Shown here: positions 5,405-34,100 of the stretch, piece by piece
Numbering within the stretch: position 1 is the stretch's first letter
Layout: every line of letters begins with the position of its first letter
NCBI GenBank assembly: GCA_020632535.1
Contig: JACKFJ010000002.1
Coordinates: forward strand, 120,245-184,244
DNA: 64,000 nt
Direction of reading: 5' to 3'
From: Candidatus Omnitrophota bacterium
GTDB lineage: Bacteria > Omnitrophota > Gorgyraeia > Zapsychrales > JANLHA01
Program-made: the position numbers and the translations under genes
Notes under the pieces: model-generated
Databases searched by the model: none
What the model was told of the DNA's origin: nothing
Seen by the model: the letters and a program-made list of their open reading frames with translations, nothing else

Positions 5405-5570
5405 AATTTCCCCAATGATGTTTTGGATTATAACATTGTTAAAATGCCACTGCAACAAAGGTTAAAAGTATTTATTGATATAGGTAAAAACTTTTATCCA
5501 CCAAATTTAACTTTTATGTTATAAATATCCATAATTTAAAAACACCCTTATTTCTCTATATATAGCCCTG
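5405..5570. promoter_or_regulatory. Divergent intergenic region likely carrying promoters for mutS (+) and the coiled-coil operon (-)
   Basis: A 166-bp AT-rich spacer between divergent starts. Candidate sigma70-like hexamers on the plus strand: TTGATA at 5476-5481 and a TATAAAT-type -10 at ~5521-5527. Not verified. Confidence 0.3.
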
Positions 5571-10155: not shown

Positions 10156-13100
10156 TTATCCTTCCCGAACTGTTACCAAAAAAGCCACAATAATCAAAGC
10201 GACAAAATTATCAGTATAATCCCCTTCGGGACTCGAATGAATATTGGAAAACGAAGTTGATCCGACACGGCCAAGATTCTCTCGAAAACTTAATAACCAC
10301 GCTCGCAATTGTGCCCCCATCGCATTAAATGGTCTAATTTTCCAATACCGAATAATAATATAAACAATATATTGAATTTTAATATACGAAATAATCTTTA
10401 TTCGTCTTGGATCTTTAGCGCCTTGCATAGCACTGATTTGAGGAACATTGCTCAAACTCAAAACATACGTAATCAATGACCGCGCCGATAAAATCAAGCG
10501 TGAATAATATTCACGAATACGCGCGCTCAACAATAATAAAGAATTCCCTAACCACCCTCCAAAGTTTGATGTTGCGACACCTTGTATTTTTTCTGATCCT
10601 CCTGACGAAAAATGAGCAAAATCAAATGCTTGCTCACCAGCAACTTGCTGCGAAAGTTTCTGAACAGCCAATGTCAAAATAGAAAAACTTCTTAAACCAA
10701 CTCCATCAACAATCACATTCATTTTATAAACCAAATCACCGACCACGAAAAAGACATTGCCTTGACTCAAAACAAATCGAATTGGCACATAATATCGTCT
10801 CTCTTTATCCAGCTTGACTTCACGACCACGCGGCAGAACCGGCCAACGACTCCAATACAACCTTTCTGAAATTTGCTGACGTTTAACCCTAGTCATTACC
10901 ATTACTAAAGTACTTTGATCAAATGCTTTGTTTATATTATTTCTTGCTTGATCACCAATAACCGTCGAACTAGCCGAGTTATTATCTTGCCCATTCTTAC
11001 CATTGCCGTTCTTTCCATGCCCATTCTTACCATTACGGATCATATCCATCAAACCATTGCGCTTGCCGTTCTTAACGAATTCCATCGCATCATAAAAATC
11101 ATCCGTATGAACTTTGATCTCAAGATCATCAGTCATTCTGCGGCTTAACTTTAGATAAACAACCGCATAAAGAATCGCCAATTGACTGATGTCATCTAAT
11201 TTAGAAAAACTATCGTGCATTAAAATATCACCTGAGTCAGACAATACAATGACTTGTCCTCGAGTTGGATAAGGTGTTTGTGTTATTAAAATATTAAGAC
11301 GTTGCGGCAATGTCCCGTTGAATAAAAACGAATGATTAACAATTTTAGATACCTGATTAAGCTGTTTGGTGATGCCAAGCAAATCGAATTCTACGCTTAC
11401 CCACTGTCCATCGCGACGCTCGAGTGTCAGTTGCTCACTCGAATTCACAAAAACGCTACGCTGTGGCAATCGATTAGCCTTAAACTCCGTATTATTCGGC
11501 TCTCGATTTTCTTTATACCAACCATACAAAACATCCATGAAATCAATTTCGTCAATTGCTTCCATATTCTTACGACCATAAATGATATCGTGGTCTCCAT
11601 CAATTTCGACAAATAACGATCCAGTCAAATCCGCAAATCTTCTATTCGTCCGCGATGGTGTCGTTGGATCATCTTTGCCGACGACAACCCAAGAATTCAC
11701 TTTTCTTACATTCCCCACAATTTCGGCCAACTCCTCCTGCGAAAATCGAATTGAAGTAAAAAGCCAAGCTGTTTCAAGCTGTTGCGTAATATCATTTTCT
11801 TCGGTTGATGAAGCTTGAATCAATTTGTTGTAATAATTATTTGATAATCCGCTTGCCAACAATATTCTCTTCATCGAATGATTATGTGTAGCCATCTGAA
11901 AGATAAGCAAAGCGCCCCAACGTAAATTTGCTGAAAACACTGTTGCGACACGAAACAGCCAATTGATAAATGGTGGAACTGTTAGTAAATCCTCATAAGT
12001 CATCGACGTGAATAATATCGCTTGAACGTGTTCATCAACAGCTCCCCAAACCGCAGGATAACCATGAACTTGTAAAATACGATCCGTCTCTGTCCTTAAA
12101 AAGCTACGCAAAACAATCATTGTCGCAAGTGAATGCGGGACAAGATAAACTTTTTTTGCGGTCACGGTACTGTAAAACTGTATTAGCCACAACAAGAAGA
12201 ACTGCCGACGAAGAATTGGATCCGTTTGCCCAGCAAATTTTTTCAGAAATTCAATATCTTCCACGCTAAGTTTACGTTGACCGATTCTAGGCTCTTGCCC
12301 TTTCGTTAAGCTTAGAATTGTTTCTGCGGTAAACCATTGTTGCGGGATAACAATCGTATCGTTTGGATGCGCCTGTTTTAATTCGGCAAGACTAAAACTT
12401 TGATTTGCAGAAAGACCATGCAAGAAAATCAGAACATTGCCATTATGATCTCCTTCGCTAACTTCAACGACATGTTCAGGAACAATTTCCGCGTCTTGAT
12501 AATGCCGATGCAGTGATGCTCCAGCTTTTTCAACCATAAACTCCATTCGCTGCAAGAATAAATTAATCCATGTCAAGATCGCGATAAGGATGCTTCCCGC
12601 GATGACAAATGAAATAATACCATGCGTAAAATGAGCCAATAAAGGAAACATAACAACAATGGCAATTGTAATATTTACGGTTGTGATCAATGACAATAAC
12701 GATGCGGAATAAATACCACGCTCCTCATTAATGTCCAACGCAATCCATCCCAAAAGAACGGCCGTCAATACCGTCCCAACAAAGGATATGAGTCCACCGA
12801 ACAACGGCCATAACAAACCACCAACGAAAAATGGTATACCACGATAAAACAATTCCTGACGAAAAGCGGCTGGAGTTTGTGCCACAAACCACTCCACAGT
12901 ACGCGAAATCGCCTTATAAAGTTTCTTTTCTTTATTTAGTGATGATTCTCGAATTTCTTTCCAGAATGACAAACCCGAAATAATTTTACCGTAATTTTGC
13001 AAAATCATAACAGGAACAAACGTGATAAATAAAAACACAGAAACACCTGCCAAAATCAAAACAGACCGCCAGCGAGGAGTACGATTGGATACAGAATCTG

Positions 13101-16100
13101 TTGATAAATTAACAGCGGCTTCTTTTTTAGTTTGTGATTTTATTTTAGATAGCTTTCGAATCGCAGGAATATACTGCAAAGCATTGAAAATCGCGTGACT
13201 AAAAGCATTAGGGAGAATTAGTAAATAAACGGGAGAATAAATCACCTTTTGCAGCAGAGTAATGGGCTCTTGAGATATTTTGGACAATGAAATTTTCCAA
13301 CCCGACCAGAGCGCATAGGCACCAATCATATGCACTTCTAAAAGATAATTGCCATGCAGCCATATCCACGAAGAGATCAGCGGAGACAACATCATTCCCG
13401 CCCACACAAACCCAATACCAAATCCTTGACGGACTTTTTGACGCTTAAGTTCTGGAGTAAAATCCGTGACTCTTTCAAAATGACGATTCAAAAAGCGATT
13501 CGGACGAAACGTCTCAAAGAATTCAATAACCGGCGCGTAAAAAACTTCAATCATCCAATTTTGAGGTACGTAAATTAAAAACGTCTCGCGTAAATATTTG
13601 CGGCCAGCTTCATACGTCGCAGGCAAAATTAATGCCGACGAGGCGCGAAAATTATTCTTTTCTCTTAACCATTGCGAGTAAGCTGGCCAAACTCCTTTGA
13701 GCGATTCATCAGACGTGACCAAAGCAAAATGATTCGCTTTCGCCGCTAAGAAAACTTTGACTTCCTTTCCTGCGATACGCTCAAGACCCATGGTCGAAAC
13801 TGGCGGAACCACAACATCATCACCACCCATAAAAACGGCAAGACGAATATCTTTTAATTTTTCGGCAAGAACCTTTGCGCCATCTCTCATCAAATAATTT
13901 TGCTTAAAAATACGTCTGGCAAATTGTGCAATCGCATCCGTCGCCAAATTCGGCGTAATCCACACCCACTGTCTAAACTTGACTCCAATAATAAATTTCG
14001 TTAATTCATCTCTAAATTGCTTAACCCCTGCCCTCAATGCTTCATCTTTTAATCCTTTTGATAAATCCAAGTTCTTATAAACAAACAGTCTCACCTGCAA
14101 CGATTCCCTCGCAGATAAATATCGTTTTACCGTTTTTTTCCCATTAATAACATCGTTTAAAATCTTTATTTGCGCAGGCAAATCATTCATGCTTTGTCTG
14201 ATAAATTCATGAATTTCTGGATTTTGCATCATCGCGTCCATGATCTGCGCGAAGGGACCCGCCGTCATACTTTCAAAATCTTTAATGCCATTAGCAATTA
14301 ATAAAAACTCCTCAAATTCACGACCACCAATGAGTCCTCCCGGATTCGTGGAAGCAATTGCTTCCACCATACCAATCATCAATTCATTCATCGCTAAAGG
14401 TCGCGCGTCAGCATTTAAGAAATCTGCTAAATCTGAATGAACATTTTTATAAGCCACAAGCTTTGGCGCAATATTCTCAAGATGTGTATCCACCGGAGCC
14501 GCTAACATTGTGATTGACGCAATCACTTCCGGGTTTAAATCCGTCATAGCTAATGCCAATAAGAACAAAGCGCCACCCTGCGAATAACCAATAACATTGA
14601 CTGGTCCTAACTGCGCAGCAGCTTCAATTTCTTCTTTAATCCAACGTGAATAATCTACCAAAGAATAATTACGTCGAGCTTCTTGCCAATACATGACATC
14701 TAATGAATTACCTTCAGCAATTAAAACTTTTATAACACTCATGTCTAAATAAGGAATGAGATCAATGATATGCGGCGCCTTCCAGAAAAACGGAATAAAG
14801 AATACCCGAGACTGCGATACACCCTTTGCCTCATAATGACGCATTTCATAAGGCCGATCCTGTCTTTCTGATTTCTGACTCGGAGCCGTTTCCACTTGCG
14901 GAAAACTGTCTAATCCCTGACCAAAACTATAAGCCGCCGCCCATTGAATAATATTATCAATCGTGTTATCTAACGTCATTCCACGACGAAATGCTTCTCG
15001 CAAAATATTATCAATTGCCGATTTAAACTTATCTTCCACTTGCGCAATCGTCACTTGCAATTGCTCCGTTCCAGATTGATTCAAATTATCCATAATATCT
15101 CTCGCGTTCGAGAATGGATCACGAAACGCCATACCCAACAAAGCCTGCGATAAAATCTGAGCTTTTTTAAGAGCACTTTGCAATGTATTCTCTTTTCGCA
15201 TCAGAACAGGAATAATCTGTGTCATAAATGTAGCAACCAAGTCTTTGATTTTGTCTTCAGATTGCGCGACCAAGAATTCGGTTCTACGATTCTCATTCTT
15301 AGCCTGTGATCGTCCCGCCAATGCGCCAAGAATATAAACCAAATTGGCAGCTAAATCACTTTGATCTTCAGCATATTCTTCAGACAACACAATATATTCT
15401 GACTCCCCATCTTTAATTTGATAAATTGTTGGCACTATCAAAAAGTCATTGAAAGTTCCCATGCGAATATGATCGGAATATATAATTTTTCTAAAAACTT
15501 TGGCTAATTCAGAATCGTGATGCTCCAGCCAATACAACGCCACATCAATAGCCTTATGTGTTATCTGACTCTTAACGCGGCCAAGTCCCCCCTGACTCTC
15601 AATCACAAAACGCAAAGCATACATTGCGCGCGCGTACTGTTCGCTATGTTTTTGCGCAAACTTCAAAACACTTAGGACAATATCAATAACCAGTTGATTT
15701 GCCTCTCGACTTTGCGAATGTGTAAGAAAATAAACCAAATTTCCACCCGCTTCTTGTTCTTCTTCAATCATTTTCAAAACATCAAATGCAATAAATTCTG
15801 GATGTGACAAGATCCACGAAACACCTAAACTGTTATCTTTATTACCCAAAGACAAGATTTTTCTCAAAACCTGAACGACAACAGCGCGGTCATTAATTTT
15901 ATGCAATTTATAAAAATTACCAGCCCAATCAAGGCCATCATGGTCAATCATATTACGCGCGACACGGTAAAGTTCTTCAACCGCTTGTGAATCCGCAATC
16001 GACGATGAAGCAGATAAGCGACGTTCTTGCGGATACGGATGAATGTCCATAATCTTGCCTACTTTAATAGCATCAATGACCCTTTGCCAATATTGTGCAT

Positions 16101-19100
16101 GAAACAATTCACCATGTGCTCGCTTAAATTCAGAAACATGCTCCTGCGAAACATACCAAGAGGTCAAAATAATGTTTTCAAACTGCTCAGGAAAGAAATC
16201 GTACGGCCTAACCGTTACTCTCTCGCCAAGAGGTTTCATTTCATCATCATCATTACGCGCAGGTGGAATCTTTCGTGGATTCCAGAGAGCGATAGGGTCT
16301 AAATCATCGTAATCATATAAAACAACCCGACCAGTAGATGTAACACCATAATTTTTAGGAAAGAAATCACCTGCAAATAATCCAATACCAATAATTTCCT
16401 TAAGAGCTTGACCATAGTCATCAACTGTCCTGCGAAGTAATTCCGTGTCTATCGTTTCTTTTAAAAAAGTATCTAGCGGTGTAATCTTTAATTGAATAAA
16501 AAGATCTTTAATAATAATCGTCTCTCCATCGATAATTATAGAATCTGGAGCTCTTTGCTTTAATTCTTCAAGCACTTCTGGTGTAAAATCGGCCGTCGCA
16601 AATCGAACATTGGCATAAATCATCGCATCAAGAAGCCTTCCCGCACGATCCATTTCATGGACTAATTGATACTTTGTTTTAACCATTGCCTTCCCGCCTC
16701 GTATATCATAATCTTCTTTCTCAGAATGATCAGCGGCAACTTTTAGAACATATGGAAAATCATTGTTAAGAGTAAACGTGACCATCACCTTCCCCTTGGT
16801 TCCCTTTGCGAAGACAAATTTGCGCTCTGGATGAGTTAATTCCTCTGCCATAGATATTGTAATTTCAACCTTAGCCGGATAAACAAGCCCAATAGCGGCC
16901 AAGAGAAAAGCTCTATCCTTACCACCGGCGATCGTTTCAATAAACTGAATGATCTCTCGATAGTGCTGAATATCAACCATAAAATTCGCGCGTGTTGAAG
17001 CAAATAAAATACCACTGACATCATTATGGTTCATGAGTAAAGCATCAACGACAATACCAGTTTTGCCTTCTGGATGCGTTAGCGCAAAAACAAGTGGTAT
17101 CGTTTGTCCTTGAGAAATGATTCGACCCATCAGATAAGCTCTTTTGTTACGATAAAAAATTGGATTTAACATCTCAATCATATCGTATCGACGAATATTA
17201 TATTTAGCCATTTCTTGCTCAATGCGCTCTTGACTAAGTCGAATATCGCGATCTAAATCTTCAAACGGAACATTAAAATGAACCCTCATAAAGATTTGGC
17301 GAAGGACACTTTCTACCGAGATTTGATCATGATCACCCGAACTTAACAGGTACGATGTATATGGCTGATTTTGCAATGTGTATTGGATAGGAGTATCTTT
17401 ATGAAGACGTTCATCTTGATATTCGACGGGAATTCCCTTGTGAAGAAAAACACGACGAAAAGCCGAATCAAAGAATTGCATTCCAATATCATCGTCGTAA
17501 TCTTGCCGCAAGCGCTTTTCATAACGAATACGAAGATCTGCCCAAACTGCTGGGTCATCCATCTGTTTACCAAAAATCTTACCAATCTTCTGAACAACAA
17601 TCGTTACGGCTTGCGAACGAGATTTATTTCGATTTCTTTGTTCTCTCTGCATACGATTCCAATCACGAGTTTCAAAAGCCTTCTTGGCAACACGATGAGC
17701 ATTCTTGAAAGCACGAAATGAAGAACGAAATTCCTTATGAATGATACGGGCACTGCGATTCACCATTTCTTCATACATCCGTTCTTTAAAAACTGCCGAT
17801 GAGGAACTCAACACAGCTGTAATTAAGAATCCGCTCTTTCCTTCCAAAATTCTAATATCATCGAAAGCATACTCTCGTAACATATCATTAAAAGTCCAAC
17901 CCAAAAGATGAGCTCTTCCCGCATAAACAACCCCTGCCAATTTCGGCAAAACAATAATTATCCGACCAGAATTCTTTAAAATCCATGAAGCCTGCTTAAT
18001 AACTTGCGCTAAAATGTCAACATAGAAAATTATACCGTTATCGTCAGGCCCTGCTCCACGAGAGATTAAAGTCTTCCCAAAATCTGTCTGCATTGTGTTT
18101 TTATCAACAACTATATGATGCAATGACCTATTAAAAACAACTAAATCCATGGAGTGTTCCTCTAGCACTTTGCTTAAAGCGGTTGCATCGCCATACACAT
18201 GTGTTATTTTCTCTACGACTACTATCTGGTCACTTGCAAATAAATCCAACATTGTCATCCTATGCATGCCGCCAAGAAGTAAACCTTGTGCTGGAGCCGA
18301 ATTAGAAGCTGAACCCACATCAACCCCATTTCCTTGAAGCGAATAAAAAGCCGCTAATGTCTCAAACAACAATACGTCTTTATCATGATCCAAATAATCG
18401 ACAATTCTTTCCTCAATTGCTGACGAGGCCAAATTTCCTTTTCGTATTGCCTCGATACGTGCGTATAACTCAAATGCCGCCGCATTATCAGTAACTTCAT
18501 GAATCTTTACTTTGCCGTCGGGCATTATCACAACAATATACTCGTATGGCTCAACACTAATGCGGGGGAAAAGAAGATACGTAGTCTCTTTATTATCACG
18601 ATCCAGCCCCATACTTCTTCCCAGTTTCAAGAAAAAGAACCGTGGCAGAGAGGAGCCTTTAATCACAATCGTTAAAATATTTCTCTTAATCTGTGTTGTA
18701 AAGTTTTCAACGGCTTCCACAGCTTCATAATCAAAAATCTGAATCGGATTTGTTTCCTTAGGCTCAGCGAGATTGGTGTCGCGCAAATCGATATTACTTT
18801 CAAAACGCACTTTAATGCGCAATTCATTAGCCTTACGTCTGACAAAACGTTCAATCAATGTTGAACGCACTACAAAATCTTTAAGCCCGCCGGGTAAAAG
18901 CAATGGCGCGTTCTCAAGAATGACAATCTTCCCACCAATTTGTCGAGCAAATTTAATTAATAATGGGGCGTCATATGCTTGACGCAACTCTGCGGCTAAT
19001 CGCACAAAAAGGTCTTGGTTATTATCATTATAAAAAGCAATCCCCACGCCATCACCTTGGCGTGTCTCAACAATCTCGCCTGTTTTTTGATCAATAACCA

Positions 19101-22100
19101 AAAGATCAGTATTAATTCTGGGATCATCCAAAGTATTTTGCTCTTTCGAAGATCGATCAACACTGAGCGTCATTTGCTTTTCATTACCTGTCTGAGGATT
19201 AACAGTCGCGAGATATCCAAAATAATCATCATTAATAAATTCACGAACAATAATCGAAGGATAAAATCGACTGGCATCAAATTGATGCCGCTGAGCGCTA
19301 TGCGCCCAATCTTTAATTCTCACCATCAAGTCCACCCACTCATCGTCAAAGTGGCGTATCCATGCTTTTTGAACCATTTCAATAATATTATCGGCGGTAG
19401 CAATTTCCGGCAGCGTTCTTTCACCAAATAAGCGCTGATCCGCCATAGAAGATAATTTCACGATCGCTGTTTTATTACCTAAGGTTTCACGATAAGCCTG
19501 TTTGATCTTTGCTTTAAATTTATCAGACAGTGTAAGCCGTCGAACTTCATCCTGAACACGACTAAACTTATTAGGAAGCTTGTCATTAAGAATATCCCCG
19601 ATAGCTTGATCAAACTCAGCAAATCTTTCCCTCCTGAAAATATTTCTTAAGACAACAAAACCAGCAGGAATTGCAACATCATAACCTTGTTCACGAAGCC
19701 TGAGAGCAACTCGATGGATCATCGCTAACCCATAGGCATTTACACCCGCAATATGTGGATCTTTAATACTTAACTCATCGAGACGAACCACATCCGCGGA
19801 CGTATCCAAACTCCGTACAAGTTTTGAATAATATTCAATCAAAACACGATCATCATCTAATCGAAATCTGCGACTTGCCGAAATTATCGATTCAATAACA
19901 AATCCGATATTCTCCTCTTCAAATGTCGAAAGTTTTAATCGTTTACGGATGACTTCTAGTCGTTCAATAATTCTTTGTGTTGTTTGAAAACGTTTTTTAG
20001 ATTTAATGACTTCAGTAAATTGCAATTCTTTCAAATCAAGCGTCGTAAGATCATAAGCGAATCCCGTGAAGTATCTTCTCTCCGCAGGAGTCGCCCTTTC
20101 AATAATTCGACGTTGTGTTATTTGCAGCCAGACAATAAAGTCTTGATATGCTTTCTGTACCTCGTCCTTCTTTCGCGTCGCCCTAATAGCCCTAAGGGCA
20201 TTATGAAGACGAATAGTTGCTACCACTTCTAGACGCTTATGAACTGTCTGCTTGCGATGCGCAATAAGATCTTCGTCGCTCTCTTGATAAAAATGCCCTA
20301 ACTCCTCAATATAATCTTCCATAGACTTTTCATATTGCACAGCCATATGCTTAATCATGTCAAGCTCATGAGATAACCAATACCGGATAAAACGAATCTG
20401 CCACCATGAATCTTGCGCCTCTTCATCAAGTCTTTCGTAAGCTTCATCAAATCGCTCTGCGACAGCAGCATTAATATCAAAATTTTTCGGTGAATAAATA
20501 CCCTTTAAGCGAGTGTCGATAATTATCTCTTGTCCATCATTCAAAAGACCGTAACCTTCTTCCGTAACCGTCGCCCAAGCAAGTCCCAAAAACGCGCTGC
20601 GACTGACCGTATTACCAGTTTGCGTAATCAATCCGCGAATTCCTGTCTTAAACAAATTACGAAACTCATTGATCGAAAGCTCTTTAGCAACAACAACTTT
20701 ATCTTTGTATGCCGCCACATCACCATTACCATTTGTCCAAACCTTAATCGGACCATAAGCAAAACCATGCGATAAAGTTTCAACAGAAACAATAGCCGAC
20801 GAAGCAGACGTGCCGTTTTGTGTAATCTCATCGACAAGATGGGTGACAATCATATTGCTATCAGCCTTCTTAGAAAAATTCACAATACATTCATGAATCG
20901 CCGCTGCTTCTTGAGTCGTGAGTAAATTTTCTTCGCTAAAAAGATCCCAAATCTTACGAACTTCGTCCCATTTCCAATGACGTGACTGCGCTCTATTCCC
21001 GGTAGGTTGAAAAACAATCGCTTCCGCAATCGGTCGCGCGATAAAGTTGGACTTGCGTAATAAATCCCCTTCCATCCGTGTTTTAAAACCAAACATGAAT
21101 AAATACATCAAGCGGGATAAATCATCGCGACGCTTTAATAATTCATCAATCAATTTTTTATCCAAACTATTTTCCATACTCAAATCAACGATCGCCGCGT
21201 AAATAAGCTTACCAAACCATCCTTTGGACAATTGATCACGTAATTGCTGGCTAAGTTCCTTATTTTCGTCATGAAGTTGTTTTTGTGCTGCAACCATACG
21301 CTCTTGCATGACATGCAAATCAAACAATAGCGGCAACCCAACGACAAGAGCCTGTTCTTCGGTAAACCAATCTAAATAATCTTCTACTTTAGTAACAAGT
21401 GCTGCGATCAACTCTTGCTCGACTTTGATCGAAGCAAAATCACTCTTCTCTAAAGTAATACTTTCTAATTCGGCAATTTCTCTTTGCAAACCTGCCAAGA
21501 TTTCGGCCTGCAATTGATCAACACGCGCTTGAAGCATGACTTCTAAACGATCACCACGACTGTCTTGATTGCCATATTCCTCTAACTGAGCGAATTGGAC
21601 TTCCAACTGTTTAATCAATACATACAAAGCGTCCAAACTTGCAACAGCGGTTATTTGGCCGACGAGTTGATCAAATTCATTTTCTAAAGCGATGATGTGC
21701 GAACGATCTTGTACATTTGATAATTGTTCTAATAAAATCTTTCCTTGTGCTAAATCATCAGCGGTCAATCCTAATTGAGCGCGCTTCTTATCCGCCTTTT
21801 GTGCATCTTGAATTGACAAAATATCGTCTAAAAGCTCATGACCACGTTTAGCATCACTTTGTCCAGCCAACCACGCCTGAACACGACCACGATATTCTTC
21901 TTGAATCACCTTTCTTAAAGAAGCCTTTTTATAAATTCGCTCATCCTGCACTAACTTCACTAAAAATGCTGTTTCAACTTTTTCAAATCTTCCTGCTAAA
22001 GCCTCCGCAGCCGCAACAAACAAGTCATTATCCTGAGCGGCTAATAAAGATTCGAGTCTTTGCGTAATTTGAGCTGATTGACTATTAGCCACCATTAACT

Positions 22101-25100
22101 GAGTCAATATTTCAATTTCATTCTTAATTCCGCGTCGTGCTTGTTGCTGCTCTTCTAATTCCTTTTTACCTGCTTTTTTATTTGTACCATTCATAATGAC
22201 CTGTAAATCACTCCATCGCTGTTGCGCTTGATCAAGATCACTTTGAATTCCCATGAGAATATTTGCCGGAAGTTCTCGCTTAATAAAGAATGACATTTGT
22301 AGCGCGATTGATCGAAAAGCCGCGTGTTCTTTTTCCGTGATCAATGCCAATAGAGCATCCCATCTTTGATCTTCAGTCCCAGCAAGCATAAAAGCCACGG
22401 TCGCACGATCAAGTCGGTTAAGATCTTCATGATTTAATAAACGAACAAAACCTTGTTTTAATTGCCCGATTTGAGCCATTTTCTTTAACCAAATCACGCG
22501 AACATAATCTACCTTAGAATTCTTTTCTAACGTTTGTGCCAAAACAGCTTCCGCTTCGTCAAGTTTTTCTGTTTCCAACAACAATGAAAGCAAATTCTCA
22601 TAAAGCTCTTCCCACATTCCATTGAAAGTTGCGGCGGTTTGCAAGTATTGCATTCCCGCAGTATGCATATCTTCATCTTGTAAAGACCCTGCTTCGCTAA
22701 CCAAAATCAATCCGTATAAGCGGTGTGCTTGAGCGGCATCTTTCAAATTGTGTTTTAATACCGTTTCGGCGTATTGCTGACCTTGCTCAACTTGTCCTAA
22801 TTTCATCATGGCTCGCGCTTTATTTAAACCATATTTGAAATCTGAATTCCCACTCGTATTCTCTGCAAGTTCCAAATGTTTCAATGCTTCTGTATTTTGA
22901 TCAAGCGTTAAGTAACGAAGTCCCATTTGATAATAAGTATCGGCAATATATTTAGCATAACGTTGTTGTAGACCCGCAGACTCGATAAATGCCAGCCCCT
23001 TATTTACGACTTCAAAGAATAGATTTGTCGATTGAACGCCGGAAATCACAATGGCTAAATTGCTGTAAAGTTTAGCGATTAAATCATACGGCAAAAACTC
23101 ATTTCTAACTTTCTTCCCACGGCCTTGTTCAATAATCCAAAGAATGCCTTTTTCATATTGAGCTAAATGTTCCATAAAGCCATCAAAGCGGCCAAGTGTT
23201 GCTAAGAATTGGATTTGATTTCCGGTTAATACCGTAAATTCGATAGGCCATTGTTCATAGGATGTTTTCTTGAGTTGCTCTTCAATAACCCAAAGACCTA
23301 AATCCAAAGCTTCGACACCACCAACACCATTAAGTTCTTGAACAGTTTTCTCAAAAATTCCAAAATTAGAACTTTTTGTACCTAAAACGTCCATTGCGGC
23401 AACGCGTTTAGCACGCTCAAATAATTCAAGGGTTATTTTACTTTCGGCAATATTGATCGACTCAATACCTGATGAGGCAAGAATACTTTGTGATTTCTTT
23501 TGCCAAATATCCAAATAATAACCATACCGGCGAACATTCTCAGCCTCTAGTTTCTCATCCAAAAGTCTTAAGCTTGGGCTGTTAAGATTGTAGTAATCTT
23601 CTTGAAGATATTTTCCTAAATCAAAATATCCTCGATATTCACTATAAGGCGTCACGACAATCATTCCGTTGCGCTTTAACCATTCTCGTATCGAAGAAAG
23701 ATTAGTAACAAAATGCTCCATTAAATTCATCCCAGACTTTTGATACAAAACATCGAACCGACCGGCAAACTCCAAATCAAGACTTTGGTCATGACGAACT
23801 ATTGATTTATGAATAAAGATAATATTTCTTATCGTGGATTCTCCCGGCAAACGAAAAGCTAAATTAACTCTTCCCTGTTTTAACTGAGAAATCGCGATAT
23901 CTTCTAAACGCACGCCCATTTGCAACAATTCATGAATTAGGAAAATTTCAATGCCACCGTTCACAAAATAAGGAATAGCACCAAATCCGCTTTTTCTTTT
24001 GTCAGCAAAATATTCGCCCAGTCTTTGCTGCCGAACTTCACCTTCATCTAAATCATTAACCCGAGCACTCATTAAGGCGTCATATAGTTTTTCTCCCGAT
24101 ACAGGAACACGATCAACAACAACCATTGTTGAAAAATCTGTAACCAAAAGAGCCGTGATAATATCCGGGCCATTGCCTAATCCAACAACCCTAACAGGTC
24201 TTCTGTTTGGATTAACCAATTTGCGCACTTCTTGAAAATAAGCTGCTAAATTGGAAGATAAAAGTTGCCCTTGACCCAATAGAGCCGATGAGGCAGATTG
24301 CATGGCATCAAGTTTTCTTTGCCGAACTTGCGCAATGATTTCATACGCTTCTTCCTGCATATCGACAATGTGATAAAGATTTAGATCTTTAGCACTGATC
24401 ATTTTCTTTGCCAAAAGAACTGGGCGGAATAACTTTTCCTGCCACGGTAACCAAAAATCAGAACCCATGAGAATCAAAGGCATAACCTTATCCCCCTTGA
24501 GCTTCTGCGTCTGAATAAGCGTTATCGTTTGAAAGAAAACATCGAGAGCCGCATTGCCGCTTGGAAAGAAAACTATGCCTTGATCGCTAAAATTAATAAT
24601 GGCAGTCTTACGAATAAATTGATGCGTAACCTTAAGATAAATATCAGCTGATCCATTCTTAACACCGTTCTCATCACCAACATAAATGAGCTTTACATTA
24701 TTTTTCTTTGACGCGGCCCTAAATCCTTCTTCAACTGCTTTACCAATTCCCGTATGACTCATGTAAATAATCGAAACACCACGTGTTGCATAGTGTCGCG
24801 CCATTGCCTTAGCCTGTTGATAAGCATTTTGATACTCCGCGTTGAAATCAGCATCGTCGCCATGATAAGGAATATCCGTCCCCAGAATTGTTATTGCTGG
24901 ACCAATTCCACTCAATAATCCTTGCACAGAAAATAACTCACGAATAATATCATCAATCCTTAAAGCCTGCTTGAAGTGCGGATTCGCTTCAATTTGTTGA
25001 TCAATCAACCGAACGATACCATCAGCATCACGAATATCATTAAGCTGGATAAGGTCATCGACGCGATGCTTTAAATAACCTCTATTGTGCAAGTCACGCA

Positions 25101-28100
25101 TTAATTTCACAAAAGACGCGTAAAATGATTGATCAAAGATTAACGGTGTTTGAAGACTGATTACGCCTAAATCTTTAAGGACAAAAAACTCAAATGCTTC
25201 ATTAAGACTACCGAATCCACCCGGCATATAAATCGCGGCCTGACTTAACTCAGCAAAAGCTACCAAACGACTTAAGAAATATTTAAATTGAAGCAATGTT
25301 GAAATGTATGGATTTGCTTCTTTTTCATGCGCAAATTGTTCTAAAATAATTTTTAACCCAATTGAAATACCGTTTGCCTCCACAGCTCCTTTATTCGCAG
25401 ATAACATCGTCCCCGGTCCACCACCCGTGATAACAGCATATGAATGTTGTGCTAACAATGCGGCGATACGCTCAGCTGCCGGAGATTCAACACGCGCAGA
25501 ACCAAAAATATTGACACCACCCTTACCCGTAAAAACATAGTTCTCCAAATGTAAAAGCAGTTCTTTAACCGCCAAAGCAACAAAATCAGGACTCATACCG
25601 ATACGCGGCAAAGTAACTTGCTGTATGTCAGAACTTGCTCTTTTGATCGGTAATGTAAGAATTTTTGCGCTTTTGCCAGTAGAAACATCAGACAAAATCC
25701 GCAATTGAACATCAAAACGGTATTGATCATCGCGATTGGATAAAGAATTTACCTTCAAATGCGTCATATATCTTCGAAGCAAATCTTCGTTTCCAGCTAC
25801 GAATTTAGCATCAAATCCTAAAATCAAAATATATTGACTTGGCAATCCTTCACGAGCTTGTTCTTGAAACTCAATCATTTTTAATGCGTCACCATTTATT
25901 CCTATATGCACCGGATCGTGCTTATATTTCTCAATAGTCAACATGTTCCCTTCCCAGCCAAGAAAGAAACGATGCATCAAATCTCTTTCATACCTCACAA
26001 ACCAAAATGGGCGTTGTAATTCAGACGCTTCAATCGAGAATTCTTCATCTGTTGTTCTTGATGCAAATGTCGCAAAAACAAAACCTTTTCCTTGTTCAAT
26101 TTGCCAGCCTTCATATCTTTTTAAATTGATAATTTGCCGCATCAAAGGTGAATAATGATAGGCAACAGATTTGATATCATCGCCATGTAATAAAGCATTA
26201 CCCAACTCTTTATGTAACCAGCGATAAATCAAATATCCAATACTGCCGACGAAAAGCAATATCCCAATCGCCCAAAGACCCATTGTCGCGTTAATCAGCA
26301 GGGTTGTTCCAGCTATTGCATTCATCGAGAGAAGAAGAACACCCAAACCGATAAGCAGTTGCATAAAATATTTTGCTTTACTTAATCGTGGGAATCCAGA
26401 CATGTCAACACCGGCAGCCTCAAAAACTTGTGCAAAAACCCCAATAAACCGCGGCGTTCTCAAACCATCAGTTAAATTTTTTGATCCTCGATCTAGTACC
26501 AGCTTAAGTCCATTAATTTCATCAATATTCTGACCTCCTAGAATCATCAAAGATAAAACACTCTCCGGACTTAAAACTTGGAAATCTTTGAGAAACTTCC
26601 AGTCAATCAATTGAACATCGATGAGAAGCCCTTGCGATGAAAACCTCACAAGAATATTATGCAAATTAATATGACCGTGTAAAAACCAATCGCCATCCTG
26701 ATACCGCAAAACATGCTCAATCCGATGAAGAATCATATCTTTTTCGTTTTGTGTCAGCTTTTTCTTCTGATTCTCGACAATATCACCCAAAACTTGATAC
26801 CCATAAACACGCAAATCTAACTCATAATAATGAGTGGTATCATTAATTGCGAAGAATGTGGGAACAGCTCCGAAAAGATCTTGATCAATTAACTTTTGAA
26901 TTGTGGCGATTGTGGTGCGGGGTCCAATGAGTTTTTGAATAATGCGCCATTTTTGCTTAGGATGTTCAAAAACAGCCTGCTTCCGATCAAAAGATAAACT
27001 ATTCAAATCCATATTCTTATCGTGCCTTAATCCAGTAATACCTTTGACGGCTAAGTATTCACGAATCGCGGCCATTTGCTGATTCGTCCAAGGTGCTGTC
27101 ATAACCGGCGAGCTGACTTTTTGTCCTTCGACAATACTCAAAGACGTGCGATCTTTCTTGTGAACAAAAACTTTCGAAGGAACATTAAACAATTTTGCTA
27201 ACACACCCCGATACATAGCGGCGGGTCGATAAGCGCCATTTTCCCACTGTTCAATTATTCTGGCTAATGATTCACTTAAAATACGCTTTTGCTGCTCGCT
27301 TATTTGGTCGAACAGTGGACCTTGAATTATGTTAATCATCTGTCGTGCCATTTCATTCGGAGTCAAACCACGACCCATTCTTAACAATCGAATCTTATCT
27401 TTAATCGTGCCTTCCTTTATCAAGTGTTCTTTGGTCATGCCAGCTAAAAGCACATAAGCATCCACTCCGAGGGCAGCTGCTAAACGTGGCCAAATTGCAC
27501 CAGAATCATCAACAGGCTCACCTTTGCTCAATTTTAATATTCGCTTGAATGTTACTCCGGAAATTTCGGCCAACTGTAGAAGACTTAAGCCAGCAATATC
27601 GCGCAACTCTTGCAAACGAACTGGAAGCAATCGCTCTCTTTCTTGCAAACGTCGAATTACTGCTTGTTCTTTAATACTTTCAATAAATTCCCATTTTACT
27701 TGTTCTCGTTTTTTACCCTTACGCAAATACATTGGTTCGACACCCATCATTATGCTCCAGTCACGCAAAGACGATACATAACTTTCATCAATCGGCTGTG
27801 TGACAACCTTACTCCACTTAGCAAGTTGATTAACAAGAACTACGTCGGATCTACCCAGTGGCTGACCGATTTGATCCCATGTTAACGAACCATAAATGAT
27901 ATTATAAAGATCTTTCAAATATCGAATTCTTTGCGCGGCAGCAGCCATTGTTTCTATACCTTCGAGACCTGATAATCTGATAAGAACATGAACAATCTTT
28001 TTTTGTTTTTTAACTTCAAATTGTCCAATAAAATTTACAAGTGACTGCGGATGAATCATCTGAGTTCTTAATGGCATTGTTCCGCTGATTGCCCATTGAT

Positions 28101-31100
28101 ATTGTGTCGTCCAACGACCATCAACCTGAACAATTGCCGCGTGACTTATCAGTGGAAATCCTAACATTTCAAGCCATGCCAAAACTCGATTCACCTTTTG
28201 CGGTGAATTGATTGTGCCCTTTTCCTGCAGCCTTACCAAAATCTCTGTAGCAGTGATAGGTTTGTTTACAAAATATTCCATGCTTAATAGAAGTTTATAT
28301 ATTTTAAAGCCATCTTCTAAAATAAATTCTGAAAGAAATTCATCATCGACAATTGAGTTCCCTTCCATCACCGATTCATAACCAAATTTAACGAATTCCG
28401 CTAAATCAACATTTCCTGCTCTAGTCAAAGGAGTCAAATTTGGCAAATCGCGCAAATTGTGATCTCCGATACCATTCCAATTAAAAGTTTCAAACACTGA
28501 CGAAGAGGCTAAAGCAACGTGGAATATTTCGTCTTCGGTAGCTTCTAATAATTCTGCTAATCGTTGACGTCGTTTCATCGGAACATTTTGTGTTCCTCTG
28601 ATCCAATTTCCAAATTGTGTCGCAGTCACACCAAGATCGGTCGCCATAACATCTTTAATTCTCCCAATGTTTAATCGCAACAGGTCGATCCGCTCACCAT
28701 CCGTTGCTTGACGATCTAAAGCAGCTTTTCTGCTTAATCCGTCTGTGAGAAGACTTATAACAGCATCTTTCCCTTTGTGTCCGCGAGCTCTGGCAATTAA
28801 CGCTAACACTTTAGGATCTTTAATATTTCTAACATCGTCTTGTTTTGCATGAACAGTTGGAAATGGCTCAACAAATGCAACTTGATTAGAAATCGATGTT
28901 TCAGAAACTTTTTGTTTAGCAAGCCACTCAACAAGAATTCTTGCCTTTAATTCGTTATTCCCTCTTGCAAAAACATAAGCCATCGCATCGATATATTTTG
29001 CCGACGGGACCAGAAGATCTTCGCTCCATTTGATAACAATCTTTCTGGAAACTTTAAGCGCAGGATCTAATGCTATGTTGTTATAAGTTAAGCCTTCAAC
29101 CGTTCGATACAAATCTAAACGCTGACCGAATGTGCGCATAGCCAAAGCTTCTGTCCGCGATAATCCGGTCAACAGAACATAAACATCCTGCTCAAGAATT
29201 TTTGCAAGTTTTTGCCATAACATCGTGTCTTCGATAAAATAAATCTTGTCCGCGGTCTCTAATCGATAAATAATATCTTCATCCACATCCACCATCTTTG
29301 CCAAATCTTGACGAGTTAAATTACGGCTTCGTCGGAAGAACGCGAGACGCTGACCACGGCTCTCTTCTTGCTCTTGAACCGACACTATTTTAACTGGCAA
29401 CTTCGCGATCTCGTCACCAGCCCATAGCATAAATGACCCAACCCCTAAAAATGTTCCAATCTCTTTAATGGTACTTTCTTCGGGGAAGCTCACACCCCTT
29501 AACCATGTAGCAACACGCTGATTGATTGTTCTGCGAATTGCTGGACTCATAGCATCACCTTTATATAATTTCTTTACTCGCCATATAATCCTGATTCTCT
29601 GAGCAACAGCCTTGGCGACTTGCTGTAAAAACAATGAATTCGTACGCATCTTTTCCCAGTTATAAATAATCTCTTGATTGACAAAAATCCTCCTCCAGCT
29701 CTTCTGCATTTCTACTGGCCACGTTTCAAATCCATCAATATCCCATTGCGACTTCTCTAAACTTGGAACAAACCATTGCCCGTTCTCACTTACAAGAGTC
29801 AATCCAGCTATTTGCAACCATTCCAACCCTGCCTGAAGAGTGACTTTTGAATAAATAACGCTTGTGCGATATGGCAATTTAATCGCCTCATGTATTAACG
29901 CAATCATCCGCAATTTGATTTTGTCATTAAGCCAATTGGGCTGATAATCTTCAATCATTTTGTAAAACATAAGTAAAAAGTCATTGAGACTATTTGGTCG
30001 AATATATGTCATTTTCTTAATCTCGCTTAAAAGATGACGGAAAAGATCGTCCTGCTTTTGTTCGGCAAGAAAGATAAGAATTTTAGCTTCGGCTAATTTG
30101 ATCGATTGCCCACCGACCCCATTAGCGATCAAGCGAGGAATTTCAATCATAATCTGTTGCGATGTCCAGCGGCTCTTGCTAACAGCTAATTCACGATAAA
30201 CATAAAGTAATTCAGTAATAAACTTTAATAAGTACATTTCTTCATCAAACAACTGACCATTCAAAGTCGATTGATAAGCTCTCATCGTACTTCTATATTC
30301 TTTTCTCGCCTTCGCGTATAAATAATCCTTCAAAGCAATAGGGTCTCGAAGTTCTAATAAATCCTCAGCAATCTTTGTCAGCCGACCATTACCCTGTAGC
30401 ACAATTTCATCAATCGCTGAAGATGCGCTAACAACATCATCCGATGACTCCGCGCTAAGAACAAACCACTGTTCATTTTCTCTCACGAGAGCAAATCCAG
30501 TTCTTCCCAACCAACCTAAACCTACTTCAAGCATCCCTTTTGAAGAAATAACACTCGTACGATATGGCATTTTGATCGCTTCATGTATCAAGGCAATCAT
30601 CTGAGATTTGATTTTGCTATTGAGCCAATTTGGCTGATAGTCTTCAATCATTCCAAAAAACATAAGTAAAAAGTCATTAAGACTATTAGGCCGAGAATAT
30701 GTTATTTTTTTAATCTCGTTTAGAAGATGACGAAAAAGATCTCGCTGTTCTTGTTCCGCAAGAAAGATGAGGATTTTAGCTTCAGCTAATTGAATCGACT
30801 GCCCGCCGGTTCCGTTGATAATTAAGCGAGGAATCTCAATCATAATCTGTTGGGACGTCCAGCGACTCTTGTTCTCAGATAATTCACGATAAATATTAAG
30901 TAATTCCGTAACAAATTTTAATAAAAACGTCTCTTCGTCGATTGGTTGGCCATTTAAAGCAGACCGATAAGCTTTCTTTGCATTTTTATAAACTTTAGCG
31001 GCTTCTCTATTTAAATAATCCTTTAAAGCAACTAAATCCCTAACATCTTCTGGTTCCAACGCGTCAATGATAGCCTGTGGATATGGTTTACGCATTGGCG

Positions 31101-34100
31101 CGGCACTGATCACCCAATGTCTAATCTGTGCTTTGCTAACGTTTCCGATCGCAGCAAGCTCTTCAAATGTAAATCCTTTTTCTTTGCGCAAAAGATTAAA
31201 CCGTTCATTTTGTGAGCTTGCTTCTAATGCGACTACTCTCGGTTGATTCGTCAATAATGTAATGACATTGGTATCACGTCCCCGAGCAATAAACGCCAAA
31301 ACTTTTATATATTGTAATAAATTTAAGTCATAATTATGTTCGGCCAGTGATGGAAACGGCTCAATGCTGCTTAACTCCCCAGAAGGCAAAAGAACTTCTT
31401 GTTTACTAAATAGATCCTTGTCAGATGCGCCCAACTTTTTCTTTAAGCGTTGAATCATTTCCGGTGATGGGAGATTCTGATCCGAAATCCACATCCCAAC
31501 AATAGAAGGAGACACGTCAATGGCTTTGGCTAATTGACCTCTTGTTAATCCGCCAATTAACCGCAACAAATCAAGACGTTGGCCAAAAGTCCTCCGCACA
31601 AGAGCCTGCTCCAATGGCAATCCGGTAAGAATTTCACTAACCGAACGATGAAGAACTTTAGCTATTTTTCCCCACATCCATGGATTATCTAAAAAGTGCT
31701 GTGCTGATCTTTTTTCTAAACGATACAGCTGCATTTCGCCTAGTTCAGGAATAAGCGCTTCAACTTGTGGTCTTGTAAACCCAAGCAATTTACGATAATA
31801 TTCAACTCTCTGACCAATACTTGTTAAATTCTCATTCTCCTTCTCAATTGCCGAAGAACCAACTGAATGCTTTTGTGTGAAAGGAATAATTTTTCCGGAA
31901 TGATTATTCTTTTCCCATGCAAAGAATTCATCTTCACTCATAAATAATAATGCCAGCTTCTTTGTTGCTGTACGTTCAAAAACTCCTTTAATATTCTGCA
32001 TATAGGCATGCTGATCAGCTAATTTCAAATTACGATTAACAAAATCCGCAACTTCACTGCTCAATACAACAACCAATGTCATAAGATCAGCATTAAATTC
32101 TAAAGAAACAAGCGGATCTCTGCGATGATTGATGCGCATAATAAAATGAACTTTGTGCCCATATCTATGTCTCGGATATTCAACATATAAAGAAACTTCA
32201 CCTTCCGTATACCACTGCAACTCAATAATTCTCTTGACCGAATTAGTAAACTTACTAATACTCCAATCCCCAACATCAAAAGCCGTAACCCTAATACTAT
32301 TATTCGCGTATACTATTGTTCTTTGCCGAGCATTACGTGACTTACTTTCATTTTGCCATTTTTGCGATAAATTATGAAGCGCTAACCGCGCGTTGGATAT
32401 AGGTATCCCCGGAGTAAAATCTACGACTTCATCTACTTTCAAACTGCGAAGCTGCAAAACTGCGACATGACTGTTGATAGACATTTTATGTTGCATTTCA
32501 ATATAAACTTTTCGCAATAACCGCGCGTAATCAGAATAAAGAGCAATACCAAATCTTTCAAAAGCTACAAATAAATTCTCAATTTCCGCCAACTTATCTG
32601 TTAATCGTTTAGACGTGCGTAAACGATATGGCTGTGCTAAATTCTCAAACGCTTCCTCCGAAAGCACACCGGCGCCATAAGCAAAGAGAGCATATTCCAA
32701 AATATGTGTAAGAACTTTTAAATAAACAACCGCGGCTCTAACATTTTGGTCAAACAATGGCGCGCGCGATAATAACAATGTATTAATATACAATTGATCA
32801 TCTAATTCATCGTAAACAACAAGATTTCTTCCTAACTGCGCAAATTTAAAAAGTTTTAAGTCGCTAACAGAATTGCCTTGTTTAAGATGCAAAGCTCTCA
32901 TCGCTCGGGTGAGGAATTCCATCTGCCCTTGTTCATTGCTCTTCTGATATTTACGACCAAATGGCATTACCAATTCCCCGGGGAAAAGAACACGCGTATA
33001 AAGCGCGGATGAGGCGACTTGCGACACCTGTTTAAGAATTTTACGAACATCATTCTCTGAAATATCTGTAGAAAATTCCAACATTAACACAACTTTGACA
33101 AATTTCTTGTGCTGATTAATCGACACGACCTTAATTTCTTTAATATTAATCCGAGAATCAAGCTCCCACAGAGAACGTAAAAGCGCGTTCAAAGATCCAA
33201 CTCGATTTGATATCTTAACTTCAAAATCCATCAAAAGATTATTACTAGTGGATTCACCCACGCGAACATCGGGAATACGTCCGATTGCTTCTATCACCGT
33301 TGCTAAAACAGTATGATCCAGATCACCATCGAGAAAGAATCGCACTTTAAAACCGTCTTCGTAACTTGCTTCAAAAGCATGAATATCTAATTGATTGGCA
33401 GATAAAATAGACGTAATCGGCATCAAGATGCCCGGTCGGTCATAGGAACCACTTACCGTCAAAACCCATTCCTGAACATCTACAAACGGAGCTGTCGCAT
33501 TTGCTTGACGACGGGTCCATTGCCTAGAAAATTTACTCCGTAAACCTGAAACACTCAACTTTTCATGAATAACTTTCGCTTCAACAAGGCCTCTCCCAAC
33601 AGCTTCAAAGAAAAGTTTTAAATTTCTGTTATATTTAAACGGCAACTCCGGAAAGATTCCTAAAATGGATTCGAGGCGTAAATCTTTGCTTCGATCTCCA
33701 ACCCAACTAATAACTTTTTGTTCAACCAAAAGCATGCGTCCAGCAAACTCCAATATTTCACCTAAATCCTCAAGATTGATAAGGCCCAAAGCAAAAGCCA
33801 GATAAAGTTCTTCTAAAGTCTCATCTGTTTTAAGCATCAAGGTATCGCTCCACTCCTTGAGAACTCTAATTTTTTGTCCATTACGGAATCGATCAGCAGC
33901 TAGCTCTAAAGCAGCTTTACCGCTATCGCTTTGTCTTTTTCTTTTTTCATTATCCCAAAACACAATACGAGCCATGAGCTTCGCTCGAAGCGTTGTCGAA
34001 TTATGCATAATCTTTGACCAATTGATTACACCGAACTTGCGTGGGAAGTAAAGCGTATTTCCTGTTTTTAAAAATTTATTATCCCCAAAACGTTGCAAAG

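Follow-up and report, generated by a model that had tools for sequence, protein, structure and literature searches.

A giant open reading frame (ORF) on the minus strand of a 64,000-nucleotide stretch of DNA from Candidatus Omnitrophota bacterium (assembly GCA_020632535.1, contig JACKFJ010000002.1, positions 120,245 to 184,244; hereafter the window, to which nucleotide positions refer) was found to encode a domain of the PhaC family, the polyhydroxyalkanoate (PHA) synthases, in which the catalytic cysteine is replaced by a serine, Ser16458. The occurrence of a PhaC-family domain with a natural Cys-to-Ser change at its nucleophile is confirmed as real and is statistically solid. The best reading, to which we assign a probability of roughly 55%, is that the module is derived from PhaC, that Ser16458 took the place of an ancestral cysteine through the exclusion of cysteine from the protein, and that it most likely still performs covalent catalysis. 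More surprising than the domain is its host, a motif-delimited, essentially cysteine-free multi-enzyme ORF of 17,932 amino acids (aa).

Family assignment and active-site motifs

The region between 13700 and 14800 corresponds, in translation of the minus strand, to aa 16385-16752 of the giant ORF (10156..63954), whose residue numbering is used throughout; coordinates of all features are compiled in Table 1. The best family match was TIGR01836 (class III PhaC, NCBIfam), with E-values of 4.9e-17 for the entire module and 1.1e-17 for the domain. Only two further NCBIfam families were matched, namely TIGR01838 (class I PhaC; 28 bits, cut-off 623) and PRK07868 (an acyl-CoA synthetase of actinobacteria that carries a PhaC-like hydrolase domain; 1.4e-6, 26 bits, cut-off 925), and the class II PhaC model of NCBIfam gave no match. 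Abhydrolase_1 was the only Pfam match above threshold (2.4e-8, 34.4 bits, gathering threshold 25.8). An earlier note on this DNA, made from the sequence alone, had linked the domain to PHA depolymerases and proposed an alignment to the PhaC and PhaZ families. This comparison came out on the side of PhaC (class III, class I, and PRK07868), and the PhaZ, esterase_PHB, and lipase families of Pfam and NCBIfam did not match the module even at E ≤ 1 (depolymerase families considered: TIGR01849, NF050089, PF10503, and PF06850). With all PhaZ families unmatched, depolymerase ancestry was ruled out.

When 1.84 billion representative proteins were searched exhaustively by phmmer with the domain, just 98 matches at E ≤ 1e-3 were obtained, 3 of them at E ≤ 1e-10. 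Nearly all of these relatives carry a G-x-C-x-G box, and identity of the domain to any of them was 21-32%. The domain retrieved no relatives in a word-indexed homolog search, phmmer against PDB sequences gave nothing significant, and domain scans of genome and metagenome contigs recovered no relative. In the resulting alignment of 95 homologous sequences (A1), TIGR01836 was matched by 95/95 and TIGR01838 by 93, with the depolymerase model TIGR01849 also matching 32. The alignment profile retrieved PhaC structures from PDB at 4e-60 to 5e-46, and the next alpha/beta hydrolase followed at 8e-13. Prediction with AlphaFold2 (AF2) from the homolog alignment gave a mean predicted local distance difference test score (pLDDT) of 78 and a predicted template modelling score of 0.80, with the core above 90 and the last residues below 50; the single-sequence model (pLDDT 39.8) was unusable. 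The order of strands and helices fits an alpha/beta core with a CAP, the helical insertion lying at domain residues ~190-400. When the model was compared with PDB by Foldseek, the 13 best matches were all PhaC structures, followed by monoacylglycerol lipases, so the predicted fold is of the PhaC type.

The PhaC-type motifs that the earlier note had recognised upstream of the nucleophile are all present and lie on near-invariant columns of the alignment: D16398 (D in 91/91 homologs, within IIDLIP), L16399, P16401, S16406 (92/92), G16415, W16423 ('YW'), and Y16435 ('DY'). Its reading of GYSQGG as a Cys-to-Ser lipase box also held, since Ser16458 occupies a column with Cys in 84 of 93 homologs, Ser in eight, and Tyr in one. 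The GGDDVVVPP...H segment indeed corresponds to the Asp/His region, with D16713 shared by 93/94 and H16742 by 92/94 homologs. In the block that follows the cap (W...D....G......Y..N.L), W16663 (W in 92/93) and N16686 (87/93) are kept, and the D and G are changed to I16666 and T16672. Altogether, 15 near-invariant positions are retained: D16398, S16406, G16415, W16423, Y16435, G16456, G16460, G16461, P16487, D16489, W16663, N16686, D16713, H16742, and W16762. The domain departs from the family at three positions, which are the Ser nucleophile itself, aa 16422 (Y instead of the consensus D of the 'DW' motif), and aa 16741, just before His16742 (N, with G in 89/94 homologs).

Chance resemblance was ruled out by the E-values together with the conservation of these blocks. 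Judged by sequence, the domain is a very divergent member of the PhaC branch of alpha/beta hydrolases that falls outside every curated PhaC class and is not a depolymerase. The helical region N-terminal to it (aa 15987-16359) has no family match in Pfam, and among the phmmer relatives P0028 is the only sequence similar to its first ~130 residues.

Cysteine exclusion and predicted catalysis

Cysteine is almost entirely absent from the giant protein, with two residues (aa 4562 and 14356) in 17,932 aa, or 0.011%. TGY triplets occur twice in frame vs. 495 and 1099 times in the other two frames. Elsewhere, Cys content is 1.06% in MutS and 0.99% in MutL, and averages 1.1% in the 98 PhaC-like homologs; a genome-wide shortage of Cys codons was rejected on the ~1% Cys of the neighbouring genes. 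Positions at which cysteine is commonly conserved have been overwritten in the starch synthase (GT5) module as well: four columns with Cys in 8-12 of 14 free-standing homologs carry F5021, I5138, V5154, and T5271. The free-standing GT5 relatives (38-42% identity) contain 3-9 Cys each, and the search with this module returned free-standing starch synthases only, with no giant proteins among the matches. The partial giant ORFs of related metagenome-assembled genomes (MAGs) form a Cys-depleted group (3/2679, 2/2331, and 0/1628; 0-0.11%) and a non-depleted one (22/2698, 14/2735, and 9/2136; 0.4-0.8%).

The nearest sequences to the domain, P0001 and P0002, both have GYCQGG and share with it the elements 'LYWK', 'WPLA.GMN', and 'RRW.W..P.(L/M)A', as well as the D-to-Y change at aa 16422. 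P0001 (674 aa, 32% identity) is encoded by a free-standing gene on a 3.3-kb metagenome contig (L002, ERZ23486757 scaffold_11339); its cap insertion is even longer, and an SSPF motif lies near its N-terminus. From their translations, its neighbours read as one small ORF resembling a membrane protein and one resembling Tag glycosylase, and they gave no functional clue. P0002, a 936-aa fragment filling a 2.8-kb contig of MAG GCA_028712745.1 (L001, JAQTQW010000078.1), belongs to another multi-module protein, in which the PhaC-like module has ASSPV-type motifs at both ends and is flanked by glycogen-debranching-like and HAD-like modules. With 5 Cys in 936 aa, this protein is not purged, and its catalytic Cys is retained.

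In a neighbour-joining tree without support values, the domain is sister to the Cys-bearing P0001 and P0002, and the other eight Ser-bearing homologs are scattered over four or more further places, which points to repeated Cys-to-Ser changes in the superfamily. Because the sisters have GYCQGG, Cys dominates the nucleophile column, and the domain groups with Cys sequences in the tree, serine is favoured as the derived state and Cys as the ancestral PhaC residue. On the simplest reading, Ser16458 would be the catalytic-site case of a protein-wide ban on cysteine, the purge having caused the swap; serine is the sole substitution that preserves nucleophilic catalysis. Since the entire giant protein excludes cysteine, the change to Ser alone is no evidence of a switch to hydrolysis. 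The earlier note had offered a hydrolase evolved from a synthase, or the reverse; descent of the Ser form from a Cys-bearing synthase-type ancestor is the part that stands, and the hydrolytic function does not follow from the substitution.

The predicted triad residues lie at conserved sequence positions, and the domain is likely active, as the elbow, Asp, His, and the near-invariant residues are kept. In the proposed mechanism, His16742, oriented by Asp16713, would deprotonate Ser16458, which would then attack the carbonyl of an acyl or hydroxyacyl (thio)ester. An O-acyl-serine intermediate would form, replacing the S-acyl-cysteine of PhaC, and the acyl group would be passed on either to a hydroxyl acceptor, in a PhaC-type transfer or polymerisation, or to water, in hydrolysis. 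At about even odds, we slightly favour the view that the domain has kept the acyl-transfer chemistry of its Cys-bearing sisters over pure hydrolysis, which is given an appreciable but smaller chance; loss of activity is unlikely.

The most serious alternative, although doubtful, is that a functional conversion took place, by which a synthase-type ancestor gave rise to a serine hydrolase (an esterase, lipase, thioesterase, or polyester depolymerase) using water as the acyl acceptor, possibly so that storage lipids or polyesters, the cell's own or those of prey, could be mobilised. A Ser-His-Asp triad with a G-x-S-x-G box is the standard hydrolase arrangement, monoacylglycerol lipases are the next structural neighbours after the PhaC structures, and Omnitrophota giant proteins have been discussed as predation factors in the literature. 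Moreover, the PhaC-like Ser domain of BCG1721/Rv1683 performs Ser150-dependent lipolysis of triacylglycerol (TAG), and the related P0088 shares the GYSQG of our domain. Yet the domain lies outside this PRK07868-type Ser clade in the neighbour-joining tree, its closest relatives carry Cys, and the hydrolytic families named above do not match it. Residues specific to PhaC that a simple hydrolase would not need are kept (W16663, N16686, and the upstream block), and the Cys purge already accounts for the swap.

We consider it improbable that the module has lost catalysis and serves as a scaffold or for binding, with the loss of the Cys nucleophile marking the decay of an enzyme within the giant protein. 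Its strong divergence (21-32% identity, with 3 matches at E ≤ 1e-10 in 1.84e9 proteins) and the unusual G-to-N before His and D-to-Y in the 'DW' motif would fit such decay, but the elbow, Asp, and His are intact, the 15 near-invariant residues are retained, Ser is the one substitution that keeps nucleophilic catalysis, and the D-to-Y change is found in Cys-bearing sisters too. A generic alpha/beta-hydrolase esterase or lipase with a superficial PhaC likeness, a better fit to which the earlier note had named as the outcome against it, is very improbable: Abhydrolase_1 is the only Pfam match above threshold and PhaC_N is unmatched, but TIGR01836 scores 64 bits vs. 34 bits, every sequence of the 95-member alignment matches the PhaC model of NCBIfam, PhaC-specific blocks are conserved on either side of the nucleophile, including the N-terminal one, and the profile search contradicts this reading as well.

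Several points weigh against a purge-driven replacement in a PhaC-derived, still active module. The TIGR01836 score of 64 bits is far below the curated cut-off of 365, PhaC_N (PF07167) was undetected in the module by Pfam, and the AF2 model and profile results rest on an alignment that is itself composed of PhaC homologs. The cap exceeds that of known PhaCs by ~100 residues and forms the low-confidence part of the model. Activity and substrates throughout the clade, including the Cys-bearing sisters, are predictions from sequence; the evidence that the purge caused the swap is a correlation, with P0002 as the single contrasting relative; and the tree that places the domain beside its sisters carries no support values. 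Finally, no phasin, PhaE, or PhaR was found in Pfam scans of the giant ORF (E ≤ 0.001), and the flanking ORFs, judged by reading, were mutS, mutL, and unassigned ones.

The giant reading frame and its border motifs

Pfam modules recognised in the giant ORF, beyond those listed in Table 1, include TPR, and the PhaC-like domain appears there as Abhydrolase_1. A hydropathy scan gave ~28 transmembrane (TM)-like hydrophobic peaks, which are clustered. The complete AceK module lies immediately upstream of the PhaC-like module and has a motif exactly at each of its two borders. The pattern [AS]-S-S-[ASP]-[ILV] occurs 23 times in the giant protein vs. 0.40 expected by shuffling (maximum 3 in 500 shuffles), an excess of ~57-fold, and a slightly looser pattern has 30 sites from aa 3760 to 16771. 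The motif, A-S-S-A-[ILV] with the variants SSSA, ASSS, and ASSP, is spaced at protein-sized intervals (200-1200 aa), and its positions are module borders; at the C-terminal border of the PhaC-like domain, ASSAL stands 9 residues past the conserved Trp. Both TCN and AGY codons are used for the motif serines and the flanking sequence lacks conservation, so selection acts at the peptide level. From the sequence pattern, the border motifs are candidate linker or processing sites.

Table 1. Coordinates of the PhaC-like module, its active-site elements, the border motifs, and further modules of the giant ORF in the window.
Feature	Position	Strand	Residues and remarks
Giant multi-module ORF	10156..63954	-	17,932 aa, 53.8 kb
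Module with PhaC-like domain	13645..15996	-	aa 15987-16770; N-terminal helical region and catalytic domain, between two A-S-S-[AS]-[ILV] motifs
N-terminal helical region of module	14878..15996	-	aa 15987-16359 (~370 aa)
PhaC-like alpha/beta-hydrolase catalytic domain	13645..14877	-	aa 16360-16770
PhaC-specific block 5' of nucleophile	14650..14802	-	aa 16385-16435: FFIPFFWKAPHIIDLIPYLDMSVIKVLIAEGNSLDVMYWQEARRNYSLVDY
Nucleophile elbow GYSQGG	14572..14589	-	aa 16456-16461; Ser16458 codon TCG, 14581-14583
Enlarged helical CAP insertion	13963..14490	-	about aa 16489-16664; from AF2 secondary structure, pLDDT 50-77
PhaC-type W...N block after cap	13885..13974	-	aa 16661-16690: RQWVWITPNLATDAIAQFARRIFKQNYLMR
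Asp16713, predicted catalytic	13816..13818	-	in GGDDVVVPP (starts aa 16710)
His16742, predicted catalytic	13729..13731	-	in ANHFAL
Downstream border motif ASSAL	13630..13644	-	aa 16771-16775
Upstream border motif ASSSI	15997..16011	-	aa 15982-15986, directly after AceK module end
AceK module (isocitrate dehydrogenase kinase/phosphatase), complete	16012-17790	-	aa 15389-15981; regulatory domain 2e-60, kinase domain 1.4e-70
Further border motif	17791-17805	-	upstream end of AceK module
LOG/SLOG domain	~24900-25600	-	Pfam
Several XRE-type helix-turn-helix (HTH_3) domains	~28500-31600	-	Pfam
RelA_SpoT and ACT module	~33300-35000	-	Pfam
Starch synthase GT5 and GT1 module	~48085-49677	-	Pfam; closest to free-standing ~612-aa enzymes, 38-42% identity

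Three internal duplications were observed in the giant ORF, all on the minus strand. A tandem pair (30412-31167 and 29635-30411) is 72% identical over 202 aa, a second pair (40252-41064 and 38632-39450) is 47% identical over 275 aa with both copies ending in ...QYPVASSA, and a pair containing helix-turn-helix domains (31087-31992 and 28570-29502) is 30% identical. A second alpha/beta-hydrolase-like stretch (~10900-12300, minus strand; aa ~17220-17680), with HGLSANQ..., VYLVPHSLAT, GKDDPTTPS, and GDHDII, is located in the last module, after a TM-helix cluster, and was unmatched in Pfam even at E ≤ 1.

The giant ORF is flanked by mutS and mutL. MutS shares 83% identity with its counterpart in Candidatus Omnitrophota bacterium SJ432 and 55-67% with the counterparts in many other Omnitrophota MAGs. 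In six related MAGs (L005, L006, L007, L008, L013, and L020), mutS-mutL likewise precedes a very long convergent ORF, which extends beyond the end of the fetched locus. The PhaC-like module is absent from the C-terminal parts of these six syntenic giant ORFs; that of L006 has six SSSPV motifs. Upstream of mutS, an 872-aa Lys/Glu-rich, coiled-coil-like ORF (2840-5458, minus strand) has a signal-peptide-like N-terminus and no Cys; L003 contains a homologous ORF at the corresponding place.

A more far-reaching reading, which we consider quite unlikely, is that the ORF encodes a cysteine-free bacterial polyprotein in which ~30 A-S-S-A-[ILV] processing points free about 25 enzymes, among them AceK, starch synthase, RelA/SpoT-like, and LOG enzymes, one being a natural Ser-nucleophile polyester synthase that acts through an oxyester intermediate. 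If true, this would make the motif the first candidate for where Omnitrophota giant proteins are cleaved, and the cysteine ban would reflect unfolded export or function outside the reducing cytoplasm. A low Cys content is typical of exported proteins that must remain unfolded, for example autotransporter passengers and RTX toxins. Another possible cause of the ban is the avoidance of mis-paired disulfides in a 2-MDa chain.

For the function and processing of giant genes, the near-total exclusion of cysteine, which has overwritten conserved Cys positions in at least two modules, provides one testable handle, and the five-residue border motif at the start and end of full-length, enzyme-sized modules provides a second. 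Proteomics and a survey of the giant-protein sets already published could test both.

Comparison with known systems

The host ORF is longer than 20 kb, lies in an Omnitrophota genome, and has multiple TM helices and GT5/GT1-type modules, as expected of the giant proteins described from this phylum. The published giant ORFs ('Archaeovorins', West-Roberts et al. 2023; Seymour et al. 2023) contain GT5, GT1, methyltransferase, and TPR modules and many TM helices; they are discussed as predation factors, and one publication states that their cleavage points are unknown. Our ORF resembles them in its size (> 17,000 aa), its many TM helices, and its GT5 and GT1, methyltransferase-like, TPR, and HD-type modules. 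The publications compared mention no PhaC-like module, no cysteine depletion, and no A-S-S-A-[ILV] border motif.

In PhaC enzymes, the CAP is inserted after beta7 and before beta8 of the alpha/beta core, and an elbow carries the nucleophile (CAP limits from PMC5509742). The class I crystal structures (C. necator 5T6O/5HZ2, Chromobacterium 5XAV/6K3C, and Aeromonas caviae 9KNJ-L) were the best Foldseek matches of the AF2 model (E-values of 4e-9 to 1e-7) and also the best PDB matches of the family profile, and they share the core and CAP layout. Their Cys291/Asp447/His477 correspond to Ser16458/Asp16713/His16742. Identity to the domain is only 13-16%, and the TM-scores reach just 0.46-0.59 because the cap differs: the nucleophile and Asp are separated by 255 residues here (Ser16458-Asp16713) vs. 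156 in Chromobacterium PhaC (Cys291-Asp447).

The class III/IV synthases (TIGR01836, e.g., Allochromatium vinosum PhaC) have the same order of motifs (..IDL..P..S....G..V...W....DY....G-Y-x-Q-G-G...P-x-D....W.......N.L....D..VPP.S....H....W), with Asp and His in place. In contrast to these proteins of ~355 aa, which have a PhaE or PhaR partner, our domain has Ser for Cys, a cap ~100 residues longer, and an additional N-terminal helical region of ~370 aa, and is embedded in a giant ORF. PhaZ depolymerases, both intracellular and extracellular, have the alpha/beta-hydrolase fold and polyester chemistry in common with it, but it matches none of their families.

A natural Ser nucleophile is also found in the BCG1721/Rv1683 type (PRK07868), an actinobacterial cytoplasmic lipid-droplet protein in which the PhaC-like Ser domain is fused to an acyl-CoA synthetase. 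This type occupies another part of the neighbour-joining tree, where our domain is not sister to P0088, and it has the acyl-CoA synthetase domain, whereas the next downstream module in the giant ORF is TM-rich and without an AMP-binding domain.

Engineered synthases provide a chemical precedent. The C296S variant of the class II PhaC of P. aeruginosa, reportedly described by Amara and Rehm in 2003, and the C149S variant of the class III PhaC of A. vinosum, reportedly described by Li, Chakraborty, and Stubbe in 2009, are both said to keep the polymerisation reaction, which would make an O-acyl-Ser PhaC chemically viable. They have the same substitution at the same position but are laboratory point mutants of canonical PhaC, whereas the domain described here is natural and highly diverged. 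For PHA enzymology, it offers a natural test of the PhaC scaffold with Ser, in which the Cys would have been replaced under an external constraint with the rest of the active site conserved.

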